A stretch of 63,397 nt of DNA, counting the filler, from Trichomonas gallinae (lineage: Eukaryota): assembly GCA_008369845.1 (NCBI GenBank). It is 10 parts of 10 records of this genome, joined end to end, with 100 filler letters (N's around TTAATTAATTAA, not from the genome) between each part and the next. Parts side by side here need not be neighbours in the genome. Positions count along the whole stretch, not along the records: positions 42,438 to 45,277 come from MRSU01001431.1; 9 more parts are not named here. One strand, written 5' to 3'. The notes beneath the pieces were generated by a model. The model had not been told where the DNA came from and did no database searches. It worked only from the letters and a program-made list of their open reading frames with translations. The position numbers and the translations under genes were made by a program. Positions within the stretch are counted from its first letter, which is position 1. Every line of letters begins with the position of its first letter. Of the stretch, positions 635 to 59,072 are shown piece by piece.

Positions 635-1246
635 TTATTTTGGTATTTTAATAGTCGAACTCTTAGGTTTGTAACGAGAATTTACAATTTGTTCGGCTTT
701 AGCAGCAAGCCTCTTGTTTTGCGCATGAAGTTGTTCGATTTTATCAGTTTTTTCACGAGAATCTTGTTGAACTCGCTCGATTTCACTCCTAAGCTGATTA
801 ATTTCATTCTTTAGTGATTTGTTGCCGCTCTTCAACTCATCAATGTTAACAGAAAGTCTATCGATTTCTTTTTTCTTCTTTTGTGCCTGGTGAAGCAACG
901 AATTTATCTCATTTTGGAAGTGTCTGTATGTCATTTCATAGTCTTTTTGTGTTGCTTGAAGCATAGCATTCGTTTTTGATTCTTCAATCTTTATTTCTCT
1001 ATCAAAAACATTGAATTCGTGCTGTCTGACTGGTTTTTTGTATGATGTCTGTGATGAAACAACGTCTAATTCGAATTGTACGTCTTTTAGTTTCTTTCTT
1101 GCTTCTTTAATTTTATCTTTATATTGTTTTAGACGTCTTTCCGCCTCATTTTTCCTTGATTCGTATTCACCTTCGAGTCTGATCTTTTCGGTCTGCATCT
1201 CGCCGATCTTTGCAATAAGATCAGACACAGGAATCGAAAAATTCAT
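635..1246 (-). CDS. Coiled-coil protein, unknown function
   Basis: 203-aa ORF rich in K/E/Q with heptad character throughout. Confidence 0.75.
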   Translation of the reverse strand: MNFSIPVSDLIAKIGEMQTEKIRLEGEYESRKNEAERRLKQYKDKIKEARKKLKDVQFELDVVSSQTSYKKPVRQHEFNVFDREIKIEESKTNAMLQATQKDYEMTYRHFQNEINSLLHQAQKKKKEIDRLSVNIDELKSGNKSLKNEINQLRSEIERVQQDSREKTDKIEQLHAQNKRLAAKAEQIVNSRYKPKSSTIKIPK

Positions 1247-1565
1247 TATTTGATAAACGTCTTGATAAGATAATAAACAAATCTGGTGATTAAAACGTAA
1301 TTAATACAAGTATTTATATGATTTTACGAGTGATTTTGATGTTTTTTCACATTATTTATGGATTAATTTCAAATCTCAATGATTTCATCATATAATAAGG
1401 TATATCAACCACTTTATCTTGAATAATGTTCTCCAAGCAAGTTAATATAGCGATCAAAAGTACTATTTAGTCTTTAAATGTAAATATAATTATTATAATG
1501 GTAATATTAAAGACTATAGTAATATTTTATTTTTAATTAGAAAGCTGCTATTGATTATTCGTATA

Positions 1566-2259
1566 TTATCTACTGTTTTGATTCATCACTATGTAACAGC
1601 ATTGGAAATTGATGTAAAAGAATTTAAAGATCCTGTTTTTAAGTCTTGTTTCTATTTTTGGATTAGAACCAATAAAGTTTCCCGTTCCAACAAGATATGA
1701 AAATTGTTTGGTTTCACCAACATTAATGATTCGATTTTTCCAACAAAAATATAATTGATCAGCATCACTACTTGCATATTTTGTATCTGGCCATTTGTTA
1801 TCATTTGCATACCCGTCGACATCTGTAACAAAAGCAGAATCACTCAGTAAAAAAGTGATATTTACATCAATTGCATAAGCATTTGTACCTTTGTTTGGAT
1901 TGATATTTTGGAAGTTGACGATATCGTTTCCTCTTAAATATAGATCGAATTGAAGTCTTAGATCTAATATGTGACTTCGTTTGTCGTCTATGTTTCGAAC
2001 TGTGTGTGTAACTTGCATGTAATCAGAGTTGTCAAAATTAAATGATGATGTTGTCAAATCAATTTTGTCATTTGAGTAACTTCCTGATGATGGGATAAGT
2101 ATTTCTGAGCTACCATCGATTTTAATATAGAAATAAAGATGATTATTATTACGAATAACTTGGAAATTTTTTATTAGCGATTACATATGAATATGTACCT
2201 TCTCGTTTGAGTGACCAATTATATGCTGAGTGTAGATTTAATTTCGGTTTGGATTTCAT
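1566..2259 (-). pseudogene. Frameshifted paralog of the 2568-3269 gene
   Basis: ATG at 2259 reads MKSKPKLNLHSAYNWSLKREG, aligning with the neighbour's MKLNLHSDYNWSLKQG. One extra A in the run near 2170 (AATAAAAAATTTCC vs AATAAAAATTTCC) shifts the frame; the 694-nt span is 3n+1. Confidence 0.7.
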
Positions 2260-2567
2260 GTTATATTTCGAGTTATGTTTGGAAAATTTTTAGTTTTGCT
2301 AAAAATTTGAATGAATTTTAAATAAATTATTAAGTATATGATGCTCGATGGCTTGATTATGTTAATTTGTTGTTGAAATCTCTTTGTTTTCTACATAGAA
2401 ACAAAAACATCTTTGAAGGAAGTTTTCGATGTAGACGTTTATAATAATGAAAATTTGCCAACACATCAAAAAGATTTGCATTCTGCATAAGTCAAGACAC
2501 TCCATTTTTCGACTTAAAAACACAAAAAAATGTAAAACTGCAAATATATTATGAAAGAAAGAAATAA

Positions 2568-3269
2568 TCAATTTAATTCGCTCGTGTCAATAACATGAAA
2601 ACAAAGAAAACAAAAACATGGAATTTTGTTGAAAAAGAGAATTAATGCCTTAATATTATACTTTGTCTCTGTTTGAGGAATTGTTGCATTAAAGTTGCCC
2701 GTTCCAACAAGATACGAAAATTGTTGAGTTTCACCAACACTAAGATTTCGATTTTTCCAACAAAACGTTAAACTGCCATATTTCCCATTTGCATATTTAG
2801 TATTTGGCCACCATTCGTATGTAGAACTCACTGCGTAACCATCGACATCAGTAACAAATGCAGTGTGACGTAACAAAAAAGTGACGTTTTTATCACCCAT
2901 ATATGCATATGCTCCTTTACTTTGATTTATATTTTGGAAATTTATTATATCTTGATCATTCAATTTCAAATCAATGTAAAGACCTACATCAATTTTGTGA
3001 CTTATTTTGTCTTTGTTTGCTATTGTATGCATAACTTGCATATAATCATAATCGTCAAAATTCATCGATGATGTTGTCACATTAATAACATCACCAGAAT
3101 AATTTCTTGATGCTGGAATATTTATCATTGACCCACCATCGATTATAATTCTGAAATATAGTAGATCATTATTATAAATTACTTGGAAATTTTTATTAAC
3201 GATAATATATGAAAATCTATTTCCTTGTTTAAGTGACCAATTGTAGTCCGAGTGTAGATTTAATTTCAT
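2568..3269 (-). CDS. Hypothetical beta-rich protein, tandem duplicate
   Basis: 233-aa ORF sharing DYMQV, FVTDVDGYA, FCWKNR and FSYLVGTGNF with the adjacent copy. Confidence 0.7.
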   Translation of the reverse strand: MKLNLHSDYNWSLKQGNRFSYIIVNKNFQVIYNNDLLYFRIIIDGGSMINIPASRNYSGDVINVTTSSMNFDDYDYMQVMHTIANKDKISHKIDVGLYIDLKLNDQDIINFQNINQSKGAYAYMGDKNVTFLLRHTAFVTDVDGYAVSSTYEWWPNTKYANGKYGSLTFCWKNRNLSVGETQQFSYLVGTGNFNATIPQTETKYNIKALILFFNKIPCFCFLCFHVIDTSELN

Positions 3270-3835: not shown

Positions 3836-5005
3836 ATGAGTCGCTCTGGTAGTATACTTTTCTCTCCGATCAATGTCGGTCATCACAAGATCATGAATCG
3901 GTTCATGAGGTCAGCTACAAACGAATACAGGGCAACAGAAGAAGGTTTACCTAAAGACGAGTTGAAAAAAATGATGATTAATCTCGCAAACTGCCAAGTG
4001 GGCTTAATTGTCCCAGGATGCATGTATATTACATCCCACGGAAGGCGTGGAACCAATCAATGCGGTATGTGCACGGTAAATCAAGCTCGCGAATGGAAAA
4101 ATGTCATTAACGAGATGCACAAGAGTGGCTCAAAGGTCATGTTTCAAATCATGCATGCAGGAACAGCAGCATTTCCAGCTACAATGGACGGCGCGCCGTT
4201 CTTCGCTCCTTCAGCAATTTCGAAAGGATCTGTGGCATTAACAAAAGCACAAATCGAAGACATCATTCATTTATTTAGATCATCAGCTGAACTTGCATAC
4301 AAGGCTGGTGCCGATGGTGTACAAATTCACGCTGCTCATAGCTATTTAATCTCACAGTTCCTTTCTCCTTACTATAACAGACGCAATGATGAATATGGTG
4401 GAGACAGAGATCGCAGAATGAGGATCCTTGGCGAAATTATTCACGAAATTCGCCAATCTTTGCCATTAAATTTCATGTTATCGGTTAAAATGAACGGAGA
4501 TGATTATGTTGAAGGTGGTTTGACACCAAAAGATGCTTCATACATTGTTTCGAAGCTATCCGGCGGTGTTGACTTATTCGAGATTTCAGGCGGCGCTGTT
4601 GGCATGAAATCGATGCCATTCAACTTAGAAGAGCACTTCCTGCTTAAGGGAGCGAAACCAGAGCTTCACAAAGAACTTCTTCGCAAAGCAAGATTATTAT
4701 CGAAAGATAACGCGTACAAGCCTGAATACAATGTTCCTGCAGCTAGAATCATCAGAAAGGACAATCCACACGTTAAACTCGCCGTTGTTGGCGGATTGAG
4801 GAATTTCAAGTCCATGGAGAAATTAGTCCAGGATGGAGTGTTCGATATCTGCTCTATATCACGTCCATTCATCAGAGATCCTTCCATTGTCATGAGATAC
4901 AAAGTTGCAACAATTGATGCGCCAACATGCAAGAATTGCAATGATTGCATCCTCAATGTTCCAAGATCTGGAATTTTCTGCCACATTCCTGCGTACATGC
5001 AGTAA
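3836..5005 (+). CDS. NADH:flavin oxidoreductase (Old Yellow Enzyme family)
   Basis: LFSPI..NRFMRSAT N-terminus, GADGVQIHAAHSYLISQFLSP catalytic motif, NRRNDEYGG, C-terminal CxxCxxC. Inr-like TCAC directly before the ATG. Confidence 0.95.
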   Translation: MSRSGSILFSPINVGHHKIMNRFMRSATNEYRATEEGLPKDELKKMMINLANCQVGLIVPGCMYITSHGRRGTNQCGMCTVNQAREWKNVINEMHKSGSKVMFQIMHAGTAAFPATMDGAPFFAPSAISKGSVALTKAQIEDIIHLFRSSAELAYKAGADGVQIHAAHSYLISQFLSPYYNRRNDEYGGDRDRRMRILGEIIHEIRQSLPLNFMLSVKMNGDDYVEGGLTPKDASYIVSKLSGGVDLFEISGGAVGMKSMPFNLEEHFLLKGAKPELHKELLRKARLLSKDNAYKPEYNVPAARIIRKDNPHVKLAVVGGLRNFKSMEKLVQDGVFDICSISRPFIRDPSIVMRYKVATIDAPTCKNCNDCILNVPRSGIFCHIPAYMQ

Positions 5006-10675: not shown

Positions 10676-11048
10676 CTAGCAAAATTTTCTAAATTTTTAG
10701 CAGGAAAATTATAGGTCCATACAATAATAAAAAATGACAGTTTTTTTGCATTGTTGCATCGATTGTTTGTTTTCAATTATTACCAACAACTGCATTAAAA
10801 GTAATCATAAGTGTATGACCGTGAAACAGGATCTATCACTTATATTCGATGCAAAATAGTAATTCATGTAATCTGCTTTGACATGTAAACTTTACATGGC
10901 AAAATGACGAGTCTGCATTATATTTAATTTACATGACAAAGTATATATATTTGACAAATTAACTTTACATGGTATTTACGTGTTAGATGTATTATTTACA
11001 CGACAAAAATAAAATTTACTTGACATAATTAATTTTTTTTTAGTTTCG

Positions 11049-12791: not shown

Positions 12792-13819
12792 TTGTTTTAT
12801 ATTTGTTTTTGTTTATAAATATATTATGTTATTTCCTACTATGATGGCGTTTCAGCAGCAAATTAGTCTAATATTACTAACAATAATTATTAATCAGTCA
12901 TTTATAAGTAATATGACTTACTTTTGACATGTTTGGACATTTTTGACATGTAAATTGTTTTGTCATGTCAAAATCGAGAATGTTCTTACTATGAGATCAT
13001 TAATTTAAACAAGAAAATAAAACTATAAGATGCTTATGTTAGGAATAAAGAAGTATTATGTCGTATTGTGTGTTTTTAACTCAACTACAATCAATTACTA
13101 AACTAAATTCACTCCATAAAATAATTTTTTTGTATTAAAAAGTTTGTCATGTAAGTATTTATATGTCAAAAGTCTAAATGATTAATCAATACGCTGCTGA
13201 TGTCTATGTATAAACTAACTCTATATATTGTTATATTCATATGCTCTTATATATGAACTTTGTAATGCTTGAAATAGCAGAAAATACAATCCACTCATGT
13301 TGCATTATTGCATATTTAGTTTTTTCTTCTAATTAAACCTCGTAAATATTGCATTTGTATTGGAAATCGTATTTTAATATAAATAATGTAGTTGCTAAGG
13401 TTTAATAGATGATTCTTTGAATTTTCATAAAATATTCTTTGTCATAATATCACTGAAATCTTAGAGATTATAGGTCACAAGATCTATTAAAACCAAAATT
13501 TTGTTGACTTAACCTATAATATTGATTAATTATTGTTGTCGATTAAATCATGTTTTAATTGCAATTATCGTGTTAAAACTGTCATATGTACCTGTAGTAT
13601 AAATGAATTTAAGGCTCAAAATCATATCTTCTCCCTTCAACAACCGAACCTTGAATAATATATCAGTAAATCCTTAGCATAAACAATCTATTTCGTCGTG
13701 TATTGGTCCATGCATCCTAATGGTAATGCCAAAAGATAATTAATGTACGAACATTTATAAACATTTATAAACATGAATAATGTAAATAACAAACATAAAA
13801 ACACATAAACTTTCTAAGT

Positions 13820-18402: not shown

Positions 18403-18502
18403 NNNNNNNNNNNNNNNNNNNNNNNNNNNNNNNNNNNNNNNNNNNNTTAATTAATTAANNNNNNNNNNNNNNNNNNNNNNNNNNNNNNNNNNNNNNNNNN
18501 NN
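18403..18502. other. Artificial contig spacer
   Basis: 44 N + TTAATTAATTAA (stops in all six frames) + 44 N. Confidence 0.98.
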
Positions 18503-23366: not shown

Positions 23367-23466
23367 NNNNNNNNNNNNNNNNNNNNNNNNNNNNNNNNNN
23401 NNNNNNNNNNTTAATTAATTAANNNNNNNNNNNNNNNNNNNNNNNNNNNNNNNNNNNNNNNNNNNN
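23367..23466. other. Artificial contig spacer
   Basis: N44-TTAATTAATTAA-N44. Confidence 0.98.
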
Positions 23467-25991: not shown

Positions 25992-26091
25992 NNNNNNNNN
26001 NNNNNNNNNNNNNNNNNNNNNNNNNNNNNNNNNNNTTAATTAATTAANNNNNNNNNNNNNNNNNNNNNNNNNNNNNNNNNNNNNNNNNNNN
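25992..26091. other. Artificial contig spacer
   Basis: N44-TTAATTAATTAA-N44. Confidence 0.98.
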
Positions 26092-29240: not shown

Positions 29241-29340
29241 NNNNNNNNNNNNNNNNNNNNNNNNNNNNNNNNNNNNNNNNNNNNTTAATTAATTAANNNN
29301 NNNNNNNNNNNNNNNNNNNNNNNNNNNNNNNNNNNNNNNN
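29241..29340. other. Artificial contig spacer
   Basis: N44-TTAATTAATTAA-N44. Confidence 0.98.
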
Positions 29341-33103: not shown

Positions 33104-34297
33104 ATGACGCAGAAAGTTGTTGAATTTGAAGTCCTTTACGAAGACGGCCCCGCTCGCTGTGCTAAGATGGGATTTCACCGTCCAAGCGATTACTACTTCG
33201 AAACACCCATTTTCATGCCTGTAGCCACACAAGGCTCATTGAAGGGAATGACGCCCGAGCAAATCCTCGCTCTTCCACACAATCCACCGATCATTTTGGG
33301 AAATACGTATCACCTTGGTCTCAGACCGGGCCCAGAACTCTTAAATGAAGTTGGAGGTCTCCATAAGTGGATGAACTGGCCACACGGCATGCTAACAGAC
33401 AGCGGCGGCTTCCAAATGGTTTCCCTCGCCAAACTTTCAACTGTTACAGAAGAAGGTGTTAGATTTACAGCACCTCATGCAAGTGGCGCAGAAATTTTAC
33501 TCAAACCGGAAGATTCCATACATATTCAGAACGCAATCGGCTCAAATATCGCCATGATGCTCGATGACGTCGTCCCCTCACTCATGACCGGTCCCCGCGT
33601 CGAAGAAGCCATGTATAGAACAATCAGATGGTTGGACCGCGCAATAGAAGCTCACCAGCGCCCGCACGACCAAGCAATCTTTGCAATCGTCCAAGGCGGC
33701 CTCGACCAAGACAGAAGGAGGTTCTGCGCCCAAGAAATGGTTAAGCGCAAGGATAAACTCGGAGGATTCGCGATCGGCGGACTTTCTGGCGGCGAAGCAA
33801 AGGAAATCTTCTGGCAGTCGGTCAAAACGTCCGTTTCTCAGCTCCCAAGAGATATCCCGCGCTACTGCATGGGTGTTGGCTATGCAGAAGACATCGCTGT
33901 ATGCATAGCATTAGGCGTTGATATGTTCGACTGCGTTTATCCGACAAGGACAGCAAGATTCGGTACTGCTCTCACGTGGAAGGGCAACGAGCACGTTTCG
34001 AAGTGGAAGGACATGGAAGGACCAATCGAGAAAGAGTGCGGATGCTGGACATGCACGCACGTCTCGAGAACAAGCCTTTATCACATGCAGCACACGCCAA
34101 TGTGCGGACAACTGCTGTCAATTCACAATGTTGAGTTCCAGAACAGACTGACAAGTTACTTGAGAGAAGGTATCAAGAAGAAAGAGCTCGGAAAGTACGA
34201 AAGAGAGTTCTTCTACGCGAGATATCCGGACGGAAACATCCCACAGTGGGTTGTTGATGCCCTCGCTTCTGTTAATATAGATATAAAGCAATGTTAA
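33104..34297 (+). CDS. QTRT1: Queuine tRNA-ribosyltransferase catalytic subunit (TGT)
   Basis: [53 protein letters not shown] and zinc motif CxCxxC...H. Confidence 0.95.
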
Positions 34298-41950: not shown

Positions 41951-41984
41951 ATTGAAATAAAAATCGTTACTTTGATAAAATCTT

Positions 41985-42192
41985 TGTCATGTAAAGTAAA
42001 TTATTTTCAGATTACTAAATTTTGGCATGTAAAATATATTTGACTTGTAAAGTACATTTGATATGTAAAGTGATTGAATTGATTAATTTTTGACATGTAA
42101 AATAAATGGATTTCAGATTATTAGATTTTGACATGTAAAGAATATTTGATATGTAAAGTTATTGAATTGATTAATTTTTGACATGTAAAATA
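41985..42192 (+). repeat. Array of eight TGWCATGTAAA-like motifs with an ~88-bp tandem duplication
   Basis: Copies near 41986, 42023, 42041, 42059, 42091, 42129, 42147 and 42179, between divergent genes. Confidence 0.8.
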
Positions 42193-42235
42193 TACGTATT
42201 GACAGAATTATTGGACTAATGAAAACGTGACATGG

Positions 42236-42248: not shown

Positions 42249-42337
42249 ATGTCTCATCGTAAGTTCAATGCTCCACGCCGTGGTTCTCTCGGCTTCCTCC
42301 CACGTGGCCGTTCCCATGCCGTCCGTGGCCGCGTACG
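42249..42337 (+). CDS. RPL3: 60S ribosomal protein L3 (uL3), N-terminal fragment cut by gap
   Basis: Translated by hand: MSHRKFNAPRRGSLGFLPRGRSHAVRGRV, the conserved L3 N-terminus; absent from the ORF track. Confidence 0.95.
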
Positions 42338-42437
42338 NNNNNNNNNNNNNNNNNNNNNNNNNNNNNNNNNNNNNNNNNNNNTTAATTAATTAANNNNNNN
42401 NNNNNNNNNNNNNNNNNNNNNNNNNNNNNNNNNNNNN
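42338..42437. other. Artificial contig spacer
   Basis: N44-TTAATTAATTAA-N44. Confidence 0.98.
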
Positions 42438-42655
42438 GGAAGAATCATTTTATCAATACATTTATCGAGAATTACAATGATAATGAATGCTTGTCGCGGT
42501 TCTAAATTATCTTGATTTATTAATTGCAGTAAATTCATCAGCATTTCCATTGTTCTCTCATTCAGGTACTCATATAAAGTCTTTTGAGCGTTATCTAATT
42601 GCTCAGATTGAGTTAAAGCAAAAGCCGCGAAAATCAATTGTTTGAATTCTTCCAT
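42438..42655 (-). CDS. N-terminal fragment of an importin-beta/HEAT-like protein, cut by gap
   Basis: MEEFKQLIFAAF..LDNAQKTLYEY..RQAFIIIVIL resembles an importin-beta N-terminal domain. Confidence 0.5.
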
Positions 42656-42757
42656 AAAAATGAAAAATTTACATTAAAAATAATAGAAAAATGCTATAAT
42701 GCATGTCAAAGGACTTGACTTCATTTTTGATATAGGGTCTACAAATTCTCAATAGTT

Positions 42758-43174
42758 CTCGGTCTTCATTCTGCAGCTCCCTCCATGAAAGTGATATAGG
42801 GAGCTGCAGAGTGAAGACCGAGGCTTTTTTGGCTTTTGCCCGAAATGTTCTTAGATAATTTCGGGCGAAGGCCTAAAAGCAAACGATCGGAAGAGGTCAA
42901 GACACATCTGGTAGATATTCTCTACCAGATGCGTCTTGACCTCTTCTGGCGTGCTCGGAAAGTTCTGTAAGAAGGAACTTCTCCGGCCTTGCTGCCATTG
43001 CTAGTACATCAGCTAGTAATGTCACCAAGGCCAGAGAAATTTAGTTTTGTTGGTCCTGTCATAAATCTTATTTTGTAATTCAGCTTCAGACTTCGGACGG
43101 GACCAGTTTCCTGCGAGGATTTTGCACATAGAGAGCTTCCTGAATCTATCTGTGTGCAAAATCCTCGCAGGAAG
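42758..43174 (+). ncRNA. Putative structured ncRNA: six tandem long hairpins (pri-miRNA/siRNA-cluster-like)
   Basis: Hand-paired stems: 42758-42822 (25 bp), 42823-42880 (~22 bp), 42883-42952 (~31 bp), 42979-43038 (24 of 27 pairs), 43050-43106 (11-bp base plus symmetric mismatches), 43107-43174 (26 contiguous bp). G-U pairs on the + strand far outnumber A-C mismatches. Confidence 0.7.
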
Positions 43175-43724
43175 TCGCCAAATCATTTCTATTTTCAATC
43201 TGTCTGTCATATTTGACATGTAAACTGTGGAGTTTGAAAAGAATCTTTTTGTTCAAGCTAGAGCAAGAAACTTCTTGGACCCTAATAATATTATATAAAT
43301 ATAATGAGTTCTAGCTTCAACTATGTATTCAACATTCAATATTATTTTCAAAATCCTCTATTCCTCCCATTATATGTTTGAAGATCTTGAACATTATTAT
43401 GCATACTCATGGCAACTTAAAATATTATAATAAATACTCTATAATACTATATTATGTCAATATTAAATAGATATTAATCACTATTTTAATTTACTCTATA
43501 ATTTAGTTGTATATTGGTTGGTTATCGAGTTGAAAATCATCTAAATGATAAATTATATGCATGTTATGTTTGAAAATTGAAAGATGTTGATTAGATATTG
43601 AGCAATAATCTATATTTCTAAAAACAGATTTGAAAAATAATCTTATTGCTGTAATTAGATGCTAATAAACTAGAAATAAAGAAATTTGGAATTTACATAA
43701 TAAAAACGTGACAAATATAGGAGA

Positions 43725-44285
43725 ATGGGTAAAACAATTGCTGAAGCATTAAAAAGTGTTTTATATGACTTCGAATCTAAGGATGAAATATTATTCGAGG
43801 AAGTAGATCTCGACCCATTAATCCCTACAATGCCTAGCGCTTCTTTCCAAGTTAAAACAAATCTTAAAAAGAGCACAAAGACATTTATCGATACGAGTGC
43901 GCTGACAAAAGAATCTATTAACGCTGCTAAAGTTAAGCGAGCTGAGCAAAAAGGCTCAAATGAAAAAGAAGAATTATTAAGGAAGAGTATTGAGCTTGAA
44001 AACCTGATTAAAGAGAAAGAGAAGATGGTTGAGGAGCTTGCAAAACAAAAGAAAGAATTACAACTTCAATTGCAAACTTTTCGTGGAAGATCTTCAATCA
44101 GATCCAATAGACCAGGTACAAGATCAACAGCAGCTGATAGAGAAGTTAGAAGATGGAAAGAATTACGTGATAAAGCTGAAGCTGAATATAACAACCTTAG
44201 ACAAGAGCTATCAAGCAAAGGCATCATCGTTAGAAAGTCGAGCAATGCTGTTCACGCAATCCCTGAACCAAAGCAACCACGCTAG
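43725..44285 (+). CDS. Coiled-coil hypothetical protein
   Basis: 186-aa K/E-rich ORF. Confidence 0.75.
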   Translation: MGKTIAEALKSVLYDFESKDEILFEEVDLDPLIPTMPSASFQVKTNLKKSTKTFIDTSALTKESINAAKVKRAEQKGSNEKEELLRKSIELENLIKEKEKMVEELAKQKKELQLQLQTFRGRSSIRSNRPGTRSTAADREVRRWKELRDKAEAEYNNLRQELSSKGIIVRKSSNAVHAIPEPKQPR

Positions 44286-44623
44286 GGAAGTTCTCAAAAA
44301 ACGTTTTTTAATTTTGTTTCATTTTCCAAAACTCCACTCTATATTGCTTTTAAGTAATGTACGAAGTCCATTGAATTGGTTTACATTCTTTCTGAGTCTT
44401 GTTTTACTTATTTAATCTTCAAATTTTTAATGTAATTAATTCCTAGCAAATTAGTATTATTTGTATTAATCCTGAAAGGAAGAACAATCTATGGGACACC
44501 AAAATGGTTCCAAATACTTATAATTTAAAGATCTAAAATTTATATTTAGTATAAATAACAAAATATTTCGAAGTAACAAGTAATAACAGCAGCTGTGAAC
44601 ATACATAATATAGTCTGACGAAT

Positions 44624-45130
44624 TTATGGATTTGTGGCAGGTGCCTTTTCTTTTTCTGGCTGTGGTTTATCTGCTGGAGGCGGCGGTGGTGGGCTGTTAA
44701 CAACTGGCGGTTCAAAGGCCGTTGCAGGTACCATAGGAATTGGATTTTCGATTAAATTTTTAATTCTTGTGTGTAATTTCTTGAATTTCATCATCCACTT
44801 TTCATTTATTGTTTGTGGATAATTTTGTAATTTATTTTCAAACCATTTCGATAAATCTGCGGCAATTAAATATTTTGGATCATCTGTTTGGTAATAAATC
44901 ATTGCATTATACCAAATAAGTCTAATATCAGAAGCAAATTCCATAACTGTCTGATATTTATAGCTTTTGAGGCTTAACTGGACTTGGGCTAAATTCATTG
45001 GCTGTTTAACAATTTCATTGTATCTTGGATTTATATCAGTTGCAACTGGTTGTTTGAACGGGCCTGATGTTGGCTTCTTATCAAGTTTCTCAAGGATTTT
45101 CTTACACCATTCATGTTGGAAACCCTTCAT
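44624..45130 (-). CDS. Bromodomain-containing protein
   Basis: PFKQPV, YNEIVKQPMNL, FASDIRLIWYNAMIYY; Pro-rich tail. Confidence 0.92.
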   Translation of the reverse strand: MKGFQHEWCKKILEKLDKKPTSGPFKQPVATDINPRYNEIVKQPMNLAQVQLSLKSYKYQTVMEFASDIRLIWYNAMIYYQTDDPKYLIAADLSKWFENKLQNYPQTINEKWMMKFKKLHTRIKNLIENPIPMVPATAFEPPVVNSPPPPPPADKPQPEKEKAPATNP

Positions 45131-45277
45131 ATGTTTTTTTGAAAAATGTGACGATAATATTTACATGTCATAATTGTTTTTGCCACCAATTGTTTACATA
45201 TAAAGGTTGTCCGGCAGAAAAATACAACTAAAAATTCTGTAAATTAATAATATAGAATGAGCACATAGTGACCATTA

Positions 45278-45377
45278 NNNNNNNNNNNNNNNNNNNNNNN
45301 NNNNNNNNNNNNNNNNNNNNNTTAATTAATTAANNNNNNNNNNNNNNNNNNNNNNNNNNNNNNNNNNNNNNNNNNNN
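45278..45377. other. Artificial contig spacer
   Basis: N44-TTAATTAATTAA-N44. Confidence 0.98.
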
Positions 45378-47340: not shown

Positions 47341-47440
47341 NNNNNNNNNNNNNNNNNNNNNNNNNNNNNNNNNNNNNNNNNNNNTTAATTAATTAANNNN
47401 NNNNNNNNNNNNNNNNNNNNNNNNNNNNNNNNNNNNNNNN
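47341..47440. other. Artificial contig spacer
   Basis: N44-TTAATTAATTAA-N44. Confidence 0.98.
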
Positions 47441-48337: not shown

Positions 48338-49681
48338 ATGGAGTGTGTCCAAGCTGTTCTTGAACAAGTTAAAGCTCGCGATCCAATGGAGAAGGAATTT
48401 ATCCAGGCAGTCACTGAGGTTCTGACATCTCTCATTCCAATCCTTGAGAAGGAACCAAAGTATCAAAAGATCCTTCCAGCTCTTGTTGAGCCAGAGCGTG
48501 TCATCATGTTCCGTGTCCCATGGGTCAATGACAAAGGCGAGATGATGGTTAACCGTGGTTACCGTGTCCAATTCAACTCTGCAATTGGCCCATACAAGGG
48601 TGGATGCCGTTTCCGTGGCAATGTTAACCTTTCCATCTTGAAGTTCCTCGGATTTGAGCAGGTCTTCAAGAACTCTCTTACAACACTTCCAATGGGTGGT
48701 GGCAAGGGTGGTTCTGATTTTGATCCAGCCGGAAAATCAGATGGCGAAGTCATGAGATTCTGCCAGTCATTCATGCTTGAGCTTGCACGACACATTGGCG
48801 GCAACACAGATGTACCAGCTGGTGATATTGGTGTTGGTGCTCGTGAAATTGGCTACATGTTTGGTCAGTACAAGCGTCTGAAGAATGTCTTTGAGGGTGT
48901 TCTTACAGGCAAAGGAATTGCCTTCGGTGGTTCACTCATCCGTCCAGAAGCTACAGGATTTGGTCTTGTCTACTTTGTCACAGAAATGCTCCGTGCCCGC
49001 AACCAGGAAATCACAGGCAAGCGTGCGATGGTCTCCGGCTCTGGCAATGTTGCCCAGTATTGCTGCAAGAAGTTGATGCAGCTTGGTGCTATTCCAGTTT
49101 CCTGCTCTGATTCTCATGGTGTTCTTCTTTTCAAGGATGGAATGAACGAAGAACATCTCAAGGCTGTACAGCACATTAAGAATGTTGCCCGTACAGAACT
49201 GAAGAAGATTTCTGAGCTCTTCCCAGATCTCAAAGGGTACGAGTACATCGATGGCAAATCAGTTTGGGCCTGCGAAATTCCATGCGAAATGGGCCTTCCA
49301 TGTGCTACACAGAACGAAATTCTTCCAGAACACGTTCCAATCATGGTTAAGAATGGCGTCAAACTTCTTGCTGAAGGTGCTAACATGCCATCAACAAACG
49401 AGACAATCGAACTCTACATGAAAGAGAATATCTACTACGGCCCAGGTAAGGCCGCTAATGCTGGTGGCGTTTCCGTCTCTGGCCTCGAAATGACACAAAA
49501 CTCAGTCCGTCTCGCTTGGTCAGCTGAAAAGGTCGACAAGAAACTCAAGTCAATTATGCACGACATCTTCGAGGCTGCTCACGCTGCTTCTGAGCAATAT
49601 AATGTTCCACTCTACAAGGGTGCTAACCTTGCTGGCTTTAAGCGCGTTGCTGAGGCCATGCTTGCTTACGGTTGCTGCTAA
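48338..49681 (+). CDS. gdhA: NADP-specific glutamate dehydrogenase
   Basis: GPYKGG, PMGGGKGGSDFDP, DVPAGDIGVG, RPEATGFG, SGSGNVA, EGANMP and KAANAGGV. Inr TCATT 12 nt upstream; TAAA stop. Confidence 0.97.
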   Translation: MECVQAVLEQVKARDPMEKEFIQAVTEVLTSLIPILEKEPKYQKILPALVEPERVIMFRVPWVNDKGEMMVNRGYRVQFNSAIGPYKGGCRFRGNVNLSILKFLGFEQVFKNSLTTLPMGGGKGGSDFDPAGKSDGEVMRFCQSFMLELARHIGGNTDVPAGDIGVGAREIGYMFGQYKRLKNVFEGVLTGKGIAFGGSLIRPEATGFGLVYFVTEMLRARNQEITGKRAMVSGSGNVAQYCCKKLMQLGAIPVSCSDSHGVLLFKDGMNEEHLKAVQHIKNVARTELKKISELFPDLKGYEYIDGKSVWACEIPCEMGLPCATQNEILPEHVPIMVKNGVKLLAEGANMPSTNETIELYMKENIYYGPGKAANAGGVSVSGLEMTQNSVRLAWSAEKVDKKLKSIMHDIFEAAHAASEQYNVPLYKGANLAGFKRVAEAMLAYGCC

Positions 49682-55351: not shown

Positions 55352-55451
55352 NNNNNNNNNNNNNNNNNNNNNNNNNNNNNNNNNNNNNNNNNNNNTTAAT
55401 TAATTAANNNNNNNNNNNNNNNNNNNNNNNNNNNNNNNNNNNNNNNNNNNN
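55352..55451. other. Artificial contig spacer
   Basis: N44-TTAATTAATTAA-N44. Confidence 0.98.
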
Positions 55452-55825
55452 TGGTTTTAGTATGTCACAGCTTACTTTCGCTCCATTGGGTTTCGTCCGT
55501 TAAAATAAGGTTCTGAGTTGCAATACCTTTTCTCAAATTAATATTTTCATTTTAATATCTCAAATATTAGCTAATTTCCTTATAATCTATTATAAAGATC
55601 ATAAAGAAGATAATAAATACTTGCTTTTCATAATAAAGTAACGCGCAATTTTTTTTTTTATTTTCTACAACTATTCGATAATTAAAGCTGAACTAACATA
55701 ACAAGTATCTATTTTAAAAAATCATGATTATACTAAAATTCCATCAATAAGTATGGAACATATTTTCATTTCTTTATTAACGCGAAGAAGCTTGCTATTT
55801 CCTGATCTGGGAATGAACTATGATT

Positions 55826-56450
55826 TCATAATAACAAGTGAGATAACAGAAAGATATCGATCTGAAAATGAGAATATGCAGCCACATGAAAGCTGAAGTC
55901 TTTCATCACAACATTTTTATTATTATTATTATGAACATCAAATATTTCGCTATTATAATCAAATGATGATGCATTTTCTCCATTCCAAACAATATTATCA
56001 CCAAAATTGAAAGTATTATCTTCGAAATAACAATTTTCTATGGTTATGTCGCCATATCCAATAGTAAAATATTCATATTTGTGATCATTTTTAATGAATC
56101 TGCAGCTTTTAATTAAGCAGTTTGAATTTCTAACCATATCAGTACCAAGAAAATTACAAGAAAAGTTACAATTAGTTAATCCAATATTTAGGCTACTTTC
56201 TGCATCAATAACCGCACCTTGCTCTACTCTTGAATTAGTTAGAATTGAATAGTCTATTTTTGTAAAACCAAATGGATCTCTTTTAACATAATATTATTCA
56301 TGCCATATCAATTATTTTCGAGTATTTTGTAATACATTAAATTGCCTAAGTTTTATTTAGAATTATGAACGCAACAACCAAAAGATATCGTTCTGAAAAA
56401 ACGAAAAAAACACCACATGAAAATTGAATTTGTTATAACAGCATGTTTGA
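55826..56450 (-). pseudogene. Truncated tandem copies of the 56505-57452 gene
   Basis: ENCYFEDNTFNF..VWNGENASS parallels ENCYFEGNNFTF..IWNGVNASS; the 3' tail AAAGATATCGATCTGAAAA..CCACATGAAA recurs near 55850, 56380 and 56540. Confidence 0.6.
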
Positions 56451-56504
56451 TTGCTATAACAAATATTAGAATTAATTCCATCTCCAAGAGAAAATGATGA
56501 GTAA

Positions 56505-57452
56505 TTAAGAATTATTTAGAATCACAAGCGAGATTACTGAAAGATATCGATCTGAAAAAACGAACTGACAGCCACATGAAACATTAATTTTTTCATTGCA
56601 GCATTCTTGATTTTTACTCGGAATGCTTTTAATCGAATAACAGTTTAGGTTATTATGAAATTCAAAATTATTTTCCAATGAAGATGCATTTACTCCATTC
56701 CAAATTACTTTTTCACTGAATGTAAAGTTGTTACCTTCAAAATAACAATTCTCACAATCACATCTTTCATTATAAAATGAAATAAACTTTGATTCTAATT
56801 CTATATTGTTTTGAGAAAAAAGACAACTTTTTAATATAAGTATAAAGACATTAAAAAATATAATACCAGCAGTGTTATTGATGAAATCACAATTTTTCAA
56901 ATGATATTTGACTTGATACCCATATATTATAGAACCTGATTCTAAAAATGAGTTTACGACTGATAAATATTCTATTTTTGAGTCTTTGAAAGCAACTAAG
57001 AAACCACTGTATTTTACATGAACTTCTGTAGCATTAATTTGATTGAAGAAGCTATTATCCAATGATAGCAATTGAGATTTTAGCGACTGACCACATTCAA
57101 AAAATAAAGAACTATTAATAAAACTTTCGCCAGAAATATGCAAACATTGCCCATCATTAGAATCATGACCATAACCATAACACAGTCTTATGCATGTTTT
57201 ATATTGATAATATTGGCAATGTATTGCTCTTGCTACTGATCCAGTGCCAGCTGTACTCACTTTTACGAAGGTACAATCATTAACATATATCATTATTTCA
57301 TTTCTTCGATAATAGTTTATAACAGAATCTGAAATTGAAGAAAAAAGTGATTTTTCGACAAGTGTTTTGCAATTTATTCCTTCATCAAAATTAAATTTTT
57401 TTAATTCAGGAGAATTATTGTATAAATCACTCCAATCTGAGCATATCCTCAT
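56505..57452 (-). CDS. Cys/Asn-rich beta-helix-like family protein (signal peptide disrupted)
   Basis: NDCTF, NCDFINNT, SCLFSQN and NCYFEGN repeats; the upstream in-frame ATG at 57473 is followed by TAA TAA. Confidence 0.6.
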   Translation of the reverse strand: MRICSDWSDLYNNSPELKKFNFDEGINCKTLVEKSLFSSISDSVINYYRRNEIMIYVNDCTFVKVSTAGTGSVARAIHCQYYQYKTCIRLCYGYGHDSNDGQCLHISGESFINSSLFFECGQSLKSQLLSLDNSFFNQINATEVHVKYSGFLVAFKDSKIEYLSVVNSFLESGSIIYGYQVKYHLKNCDFINNTAGIIFFNVFILILKSCLFSQNNIELESKFISFYNERCDCENCYFEGNNFTFSEKVIWNGVNASSLENNFEFHNNLNCYSIKSIPSKNQECCNEKINVSCGCQFVFSDRYLSVISLVILNNS

Positions 57453-58972: not shown

Positions 58973-59072
58973 NNNNNNNNNNNNNNNNNNNNNNNNNNNN
59001 NNNNNNNNNNNNNNNNTTAATTAATTAANNNNNNNNNNNNNNNNNNNNNNNNNNNNNNNNNNNNNNNNNNNN
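58973..59072. other. Artificial contig spacer
   Basis: N44-TTAATTAATTAA-N44. Confidence 0.98.

Follow-up and report, generated by a model that had tools for sequence, protein, structure and literature searches.

Genomic setting of the hairpin block

The window analyzed here is a stretch of 63,397 nt from the draft genome assembly of Trichomonas gallinae (GCA_008369845.1), within which a 417-nt block, at positions 42758–43174, consists of six hairpins, denoted H1 to H6 (Table 1). The block had been described as intergenic, and it is: it lies between two divergent genes, of which the left one, on the minus strand, has its ATG at a distance of only 102 nt. The N-terminus encoded by the remaining part of this left gene is 93% identical, over 72 aa, to a 791-aa protein (P0003), the best Trichomonas vaginalis match of which, TVAG_319540, is named ARM repeat/importin N-terminal and, at 29% identity, may be a paralogue. 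The protein encoded by the right gene shares 59% identity with T. vaginalis TVAG_262460 and 99% with protein P0001; no Pfam family was detected in it, and an Atlas search produced unnamed clusters only, with low recognition. Because the best matches of the two neighbors, TVAG_262460 and TVAG_319540, are located on different T. vaginalis contigs (27.7 and 26.1 Mb, respectively), the neighborhood is probably not conserved in T. vaginalis.

The window contains nine identical 100-base gap markers, each composed of 44 N, a 12-mer with stops in all six frames and another 44 N; the scaffold order is probably artificial and adjacency across the markers unreliable. The block itself is contained in a single gap-free stretch (42438–45277). 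Elsewhere in the window, there are genes for an NADH:flavin oxidoreductase (3836–5005), a queuine tRNA-ribosyltransferase (33104–34297) and a glutamate dehydrogenase (48338–49681), along with gene-sized tandem duplications at 635–3269 and 55816–57452 (~73–81% identity). The contig end before the gap nearest to the left gene (42270–42337) consists of GC-rich, degenerate short repeats (cgtggcc-like). A near-palindromic motif with the core TTTGACATG, which might be the site of a transcription factor or represent a small family of repeats, recurs in the intergenic DNA, often in clusters, with nine exact copies in the window.

Table 1 Coordinates of the hairpin block, its neighbors and associated features in the window
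Feature	Position	Strand	Remarks
H1	42758–42822	+	25-bp stem, 15-nt loop; 24 Watson–Crick pairs and 1 G·U; −49.4 kcal/mol
H2	42823–42880	+	21-bp core with basal extension; 18 Watson–Crick pairs, 2 G·U, 1 mismatch; −33.1 kcal/mol
T6 run	H2 5′ arm	+	
H3	42883–42952	+	26-bp core (~31 bp with base), 5-nt loop; 25 Watson–Crick pairs and 1 A·C; −51.4 kcal/mol
Small extra hairpin in H3–H4 spacer	42956–42985	+	in MFE and centroid structures; competes with H4 base
H4	42979–43038	+	decayed stem; 24 of 29 Watson–Crick; −33.1 kcal/mol
H5	43050–43106	+	weakest hairpin; 14 of 18 Watson–Crick; −19.0 kcal/mol
H6	43107–43174	+	26 contiguous pairs in 31-bp core; 28 of 31 Watson–Crick; −44.4 kcal/mol
Initiator-like TCATTTTT	42721–42728	+	~35 nt before H1; same octamer as at left gene
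Putative closing helix, 5′ strand	42742–42757	+	flush with H1
Putative closing helix, 3′ strand	43223–43236	+	predicted RNA end shortly 3′
Left neighbor, ARM/importin-like gene, 5′ end	42438–42655	−	cut by gap 42338–42437
Right neighbor, hypothetical gene, 186 aa	43725–44285	+	divergent from left gene
TTTGACATG-core motif sites	10877–11025, 12923–12972, 41979–42200, 42702–42710, 43212–43224		
Gap markers	18403–18502, 23367–23466, 25992–26091, 29241–29340, 42338–42437, 45278–45377, 47341–47440, 55352–55451, 58973–59072		

Structure and composition of the block

Folding recovers the six hairpins at the coordinates at which they had been reported. The MFE of the block is −239.4 kcal/mol compared to −119.5 ± 6.9 for shuffled sequences (z −17.4; equaled by 0 of 100 shuffles), and when the whole window was folded in 70-nt windows, the seven most stable ones all fell inside the block. 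A strand-neutral scan of the window for short-loop inverted repeats produced 12 with a score of at least 11, among which five are H1, H2, H3, H4 and H6, whereas H5 is below this cut-off; the three top scores (23, 22 and 22) all belong to the block, and the best one outside it is 15. The ungapped core stems of H1 to H6 span 25, 21, 26, 29, 18 and 31 bp, and the loops are 15, 11, 5, 8, 19 and 4 nt long; 133 of the 150 core pairs are Watson–Crick, and almost all of the block is paired in the fold.

Some details of the preliminary description required adjustment. The 25-bp stem of H1 stands, and the GAAA cap proposed for it is present in the MFE structure but absent from the centroid. H4, given as 24 of 27 pairs, has 24 Watson–Crick pairs in an ungapped core of 29, and its mean pair probability is 0.63. 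H5 is weak. The 26 contiguous pairs of H6 were found as described, within a longer core. The 26-nt spacer between H3 and H4 exists as well but is not plain, given that it folds into a small hairpin of its own that competes with the H4 base.

The arms of the hairpins had been called unrelated, in agreement with our comparisons, all 15 of which yielded p values of at least 0.15 against shuffles; unrelated arms argue against a repeat family. The GC-richer island is equally evident: the block is 46% GC, whereas the 665 overlapping non-coding windows of 417 nt have a median of 27% and never exceed 37%. The stems are 48% GC and both flanks 24%; the loops and spacers, at 40%, do not differ significantly from the stems (p 0.21). 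There is no second copy of the block within the window, and no reading frame that overlaps it exceeds 76 codons from stop to stop, so the statement that it includes no credible ORF holds. The block is a real and rare feature that matches no Rfam family.

Fold-back chimeras formed during amplification or assembly could, in principle, create such a block, and this is a draft assembly with all the gap markers listed above in 63 kb. However, 17 of the 150 core stem positions are mismatched, decay differs among the hairpins, and the sequence of the block, rich in GC, has no relation to that of its flanks, in a gap-free stretch with intact genes, so that an artefact appears highly improbable.

Searches for known RNAs and homologs

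The assignment of the block to no known class of non-coding RNA was borne out. In the Rfam search, nothing reached the gathering score, with shape-only matches far below it; numerous miRNA-shaped matches to miRNA families were obtained, the best of which scored 34 bits against a gathering threshold of 82, with no sequence relation. No covariance-model match to snRNA, snoRNA, SRP RNA, RNase P/MRP RNA, telomerase RNA or ribozymes was found in the block, nor did it contain a tRNA detectable by ARAGORN or a match to rRNA.

Several specific candidates were examined. The segment 42953–42970 of the H3–H4 spacer is similar to the most 5′ of the regions conserved in RNase P RNA, and it could pair with a part of H5 (43084–43094) as a P4-like helix. 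RNase P RNA was rejected at the block on the order of the elements, the misfit of the last conserved region and the blank Rfam result. The 3′ arm of H5 (43087–43106) appears to be antisense to a segment conserved in the large-subunit rRNA of eukaryotes (~16 of 19 positions), a match that, by a rough hand estimate, is near the chance level. For an H/ACA snoRNA, which was also rejected, the best match had an E value of 0.8–2.4, far under the gathering score, and no ACA box was seen by eye after H5; the RNase P, MRP and H/ACA RNAs of T. vaginalis are listed in PMC3228867. A spliceosomal intron was rejected because the branch-point motif is on neither strand between the two genes, and a Pol III polycistron because of the T6 run and four T4 runs on the plus strand. 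The T6 run (42823–42830) lies directly 3′ of H1, an arrangement seen in short-hairpin transcripts made by Pol III, and it is also paired, forming the base of H2.

Searches of the block by blastn against plasmids, phages and E. coli genomes, and of one translated frame against viral contigs, matched nothing, and no relatives of the right neighbor were found by alignment in metagenome or viral contigs. A 17-base piece of the H6 arm, the one arm of the 12 that was scanned, had no viral matches but was found at 77 metagenome and 70 prokaryote loci; the longest extension was 22 bases, and an inverted copy within five mismatches was present at 0 of the 77 and 2 of the 70 loci, so that these matches are attributed to chance. 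The blanks in the plasmid, phage, E. coli, viral, metagenome and prokaryote sets say little because trichomonad DNA is not expected there. In the literature searched, which mostly consisted of papers available without subscription, no report of a trichomonad hairpin array was found, and the available parts of PMC12289875, PMC10045372, PMC12316389 and PMC13735942 describe no comparable array.

A predicted transcript of about 500 nt

Three elements are new in this analysis, namely, the divergent-gene setting, an initiator-like motif on the plus strand and a weakly supported closing helix; the latter two were both identified post hoc. The motif, TCATTTTT, which resembles the initiator consensus, also directly precedes the ATG of the left gene (position 42663). 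It occurs in 1.3% of the 6,910 intergenic 50-nt windows, and a looser form occurs in 11.9% of these and precedes 8 of 34 ORF starts; on the minus strand, there is no initiator-like pentamer in 43175–43306. The lncRNAs of T. vaginalis are reported to have an Inr of their own (PMC4223856). An RNA start on the plus strand near 42723–42724 is predicted.

Folding of 42724–43240 brings together the segments on both sides of the block in a putative closing helix, 11 of the 14 pairs of which have probabilities of 0.92–0.95. This helix includes two to three U·G pairs that are mismatches on the opposite strand, and its energy is −15.7 kcal/mol on the plus strand vs −9.8 on the minus strand. The signal is borderline (p ~0.05): it is equaled by 4.9% of 1000 shuffles and by 4.6% of 1,969 intergenic pairs, and by 12.5% when wider flanks are allowed; in a stub test (300 trials), the energy was reached by 24% and the pair count by 1.3%. 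As the putative helix joins both flanks, it suggests one RNA of ~500 nt.

Such an RNA could function intact, as a structured non-coding RNA of about this length in which six or seven arms, enclosed by the closing helix, form a multi-branch junction that binds proteins and is not diced. The highly probable pairs of the closing helix, flush with H1, and the flush arms, which suit coaxial stacking, speak for this possibility, as do the GC island and the nearly complete pairing of the block. Stems that are long, without gaps, nearly perfect and similar in size are better suited to an enzyme that cuts double-stranded RNA than to a protein scaffold. We consider the intact RNA somewhat doubtful, albeit a serious alternative. 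If this possibility is true, a deep-branching eukaryote would have a structured RNA of half a kilobase that belongs to no recognized class.

Strand asymmetry and possible neutral origin

The mismatches in the core stems comprise six G·T, four A·C and seven others, without a significant G·U strand bias (p 0.75). The plus strand folds 25 kcal/mol better than the minus strand, an advantage that is as large in 29% of 150 simulations of neutral decay; with neutral boundaries, four to five of the six hairpins favor the plus strand. When folded as DNA, the two strands are equal (−128.3 vs −127.8). Comparison of the 12 arms with the 28 ORFs of the window identified no target better than shuffled sequences (lowest p 0.05). 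Of six hairpins compared for codon usage, one, H6, had an arm that was slightly codon-like (p 0.018, uncorrected).

These observations bear on the possibility that the block is a non-functional or foreign relic, that is, a GC-rich insert, such as a piece of a mobile element or virus, at a rearrangement point, with template-switch palindromes in neutral decay. The mismatch spectrum and the strand energies agree with neutral decay, and the equal folding of the DNA strands, the GC-rich loops and spacers, the probable non-adjacency of the neighbors in T. vaginalis and the codon-like H6 arm are all compatible with this scenario; furthermore, whole hairpins are reported to be able to arise in one template-switching step (10.1101/2023.04.19.537475). 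However, the relic would require six independent events in 417 nt, whereas the remaining 63 kb show nothing of the kind; the window lacks a second copy of the block, and the arms are unrelated. No target-site duplication is seen at the flush joints, and the inverted 9-mers that flank the block, which might be taken for the terminal inverted repeats of a MITE or DNA transposon relic, were rejected as such because they represent the common intergenic motif with nine copies in the window. Composition points the same way: the seven inverted repeats outside the block are 9–33% GC, and stems copied from the intergenic DNA nearby would have been AT-rich instead of GC-rich as observed. Six GC-rich stems in 417 nt of an AT-rich genome make neutral local copying hard to credit, and a relic seems to us somewhat unlikely, although it is a serious alternative. 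If it were one, the block would be a striking palindrome hot spot of modest importance.

The equal folding of the two DNA strands, the location between divergent genes and the 5-nt loop of H3 could also fit a DNA element, with palindromes that extrude as cruciforms between divergent promoters and serve replication, chromosome segregation or promoter control. Loops of 11–19 nt, such as those of H1, H2 and H5, disfavor cruciform extrusion, G·U pairs are part of both the basal extensions and the closing helix, and no precedent was found in the literature searched; this explanation appears very unlikely.

Interpretation: a candidate precursor of several guide RNAs

The most economical reading of the GC island, the six unrelated GC-rich stems, the initiator-like motif and the possible closing helix is a non-coding RNA. 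Within this reading, we tentatively prefer a stand-alone non-coding RNA gene of ~500 nt, the product of which would be a precursor similar to hairpin RNAs, from which several guides would be diced; the probability we assign to it, roughly 40%, is, like the wording chosen for the alternatives, a matter of judgement and not of computation. The plus strand would be transcribed by Pol II from the initiator-like motif near 42724, the six unrelated stems of 18–31 bp would be cut by the RNase III/Dicer of the parasite into different small guides, and these would be loaded into PIWI-like Argonautes. Each stem was most likely born as a short inverted duplication, perhaps by template switching of the kind described in 10.1101/2023.04.19.537475, with H4 and H5 probably being the most decayed. 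The mode of action would be that of an endogenous hairpin-siRNA locus and not that of a Drosha-cropped miRNA cluster. Given that the small RNAs of the 34-nt class exceed the stems in length, the products would belong to another size class or include loop sequence. We infer the strand, the start, the closing helix and selection on the stems.

The preliminary proposal of a polycistronic small-RNA locus thus fares unevenly: a non-coding RNA is the most economical reading, but the pri-miRNA label fits poorly with the flush spacers and with the 34-nt PIWI-like pathway. The genome of T. vaginalis includes genes for a putative RNase III and for two PIWI-like Argonautes, AGO1 and AGO2, and the small RNAs of this species show a 34-nt peak with a 5′ U bias, the role of Dicer being open; the small-RNA loci were called with hairpin detection off (PMC7845603). 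Of 27 published miRNA candidates, 9 were recovered by deep sequencing, with low counts save for one tRNA piece (PMC7844918). The guide reading is weakened by a 34-nt peak that exceeds every core stem and by published miRNAs that are mostly unrecovered. The absence of a significant G·U bias, the strand advantage that simulations reproduce, the borderline closing helix, the equal folding of the strands as DNA, the lack of a target among the 28 ORFs of the window, the non-significant difference in GC content between the stems and the loops and spacers, and the probably non-conserved neighborhood also count against it.

A more elaborate form of the preferred guide-precursor reading, which we regard as quite improbable, is a memory array, in which pieces of transposons, viruses or genes would be captured as inverted duplications and added under one promoter, each hairpin supplying a guide for PIWI-like Argonautes. 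In that case, the spread of decay, with H1, H3 and H6 nearly perfect and H4 and H5 worn, would reflect the order of acquisition, and trichomonads would have in this locus their first genuine gene for hairpin-derived small RNAs, an analog, made of hairpins, of CRISPR or of a piRNA trap.

Comparison with known systems

Clusters of pri-miRNAs in animals, plants and some viruses contain, as does the block, several unrelated hairpins of 57–70 nt over a short distance, and the long stems in hairpins of ~60–70 nt typical of miRNA precursors are present here, H5 being weak. In contrast to such clusters, spacers of 0–2 nt leave no single-stranded basal flanks: Drosha-type flanks are missing at the spacers of 0, 2 and 0 nt, H1 is flush with the closing helix, and the stems are nearly unbulged. 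The fit of a miRNA cluster is no better than that of a hairpin-siRNA-like precursor or of a structured RNA that stays intact.

The hairpin RNAs (hpRNAs) that give rise to endo-siRNAs usually have longer stems, or stems of related repeats, and match known targets. The block shares with this class its non-coding, near-perfect fold-back stems, although 18–31 bp is short for the class, and differs from the Drosophila loci in having six short, unrelated stems without a target among the ORFs of the window. The Drosophila hpRNA loci (for a paper on these, see PMC10317233) resemble the block in anatomy, with a non-coding transcript the long, near-perfect stems of which feed Dicer and Argonaute.

The piRNA-like 34-nt RNAs of T. 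vaginalis would be the likely effector pathway in common with our preferred reading of the block; they derive from repeats and genes, with matches on both strands, and exceed its core stems in length (PMC7845603). Hairpins born by template switching offer a plausible origin for each ungapped stem of the block, but those reported in 10.1101/2023.04.19.537475 are scattered single events in primates, unlike six flush, GC-rich hairpins.

The closest comparison by lineage is with the published trichomonad miRNA candidates Tvm1–11 (PMC2817412) and Tga-miR-1 to -3 (PMC3995805), which share with the block the idea of a hairpin precursor. None of the 14 sequences printed in these two papers (11 Tvm and 3 Tga-miR) matches the block by eye, a comparison confined to these. 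The Tga precursors, at −21 to −26 kcal/mol, are less stable than five of the block hairpins, at −33 to −51 kcal/mol. As a candidate source of hairpin-derived small RNAs in trichomonads, the block is, by its structure, far stronger than the earlier miRNA candidates and offers six exact places at which to look in small-RNA data.
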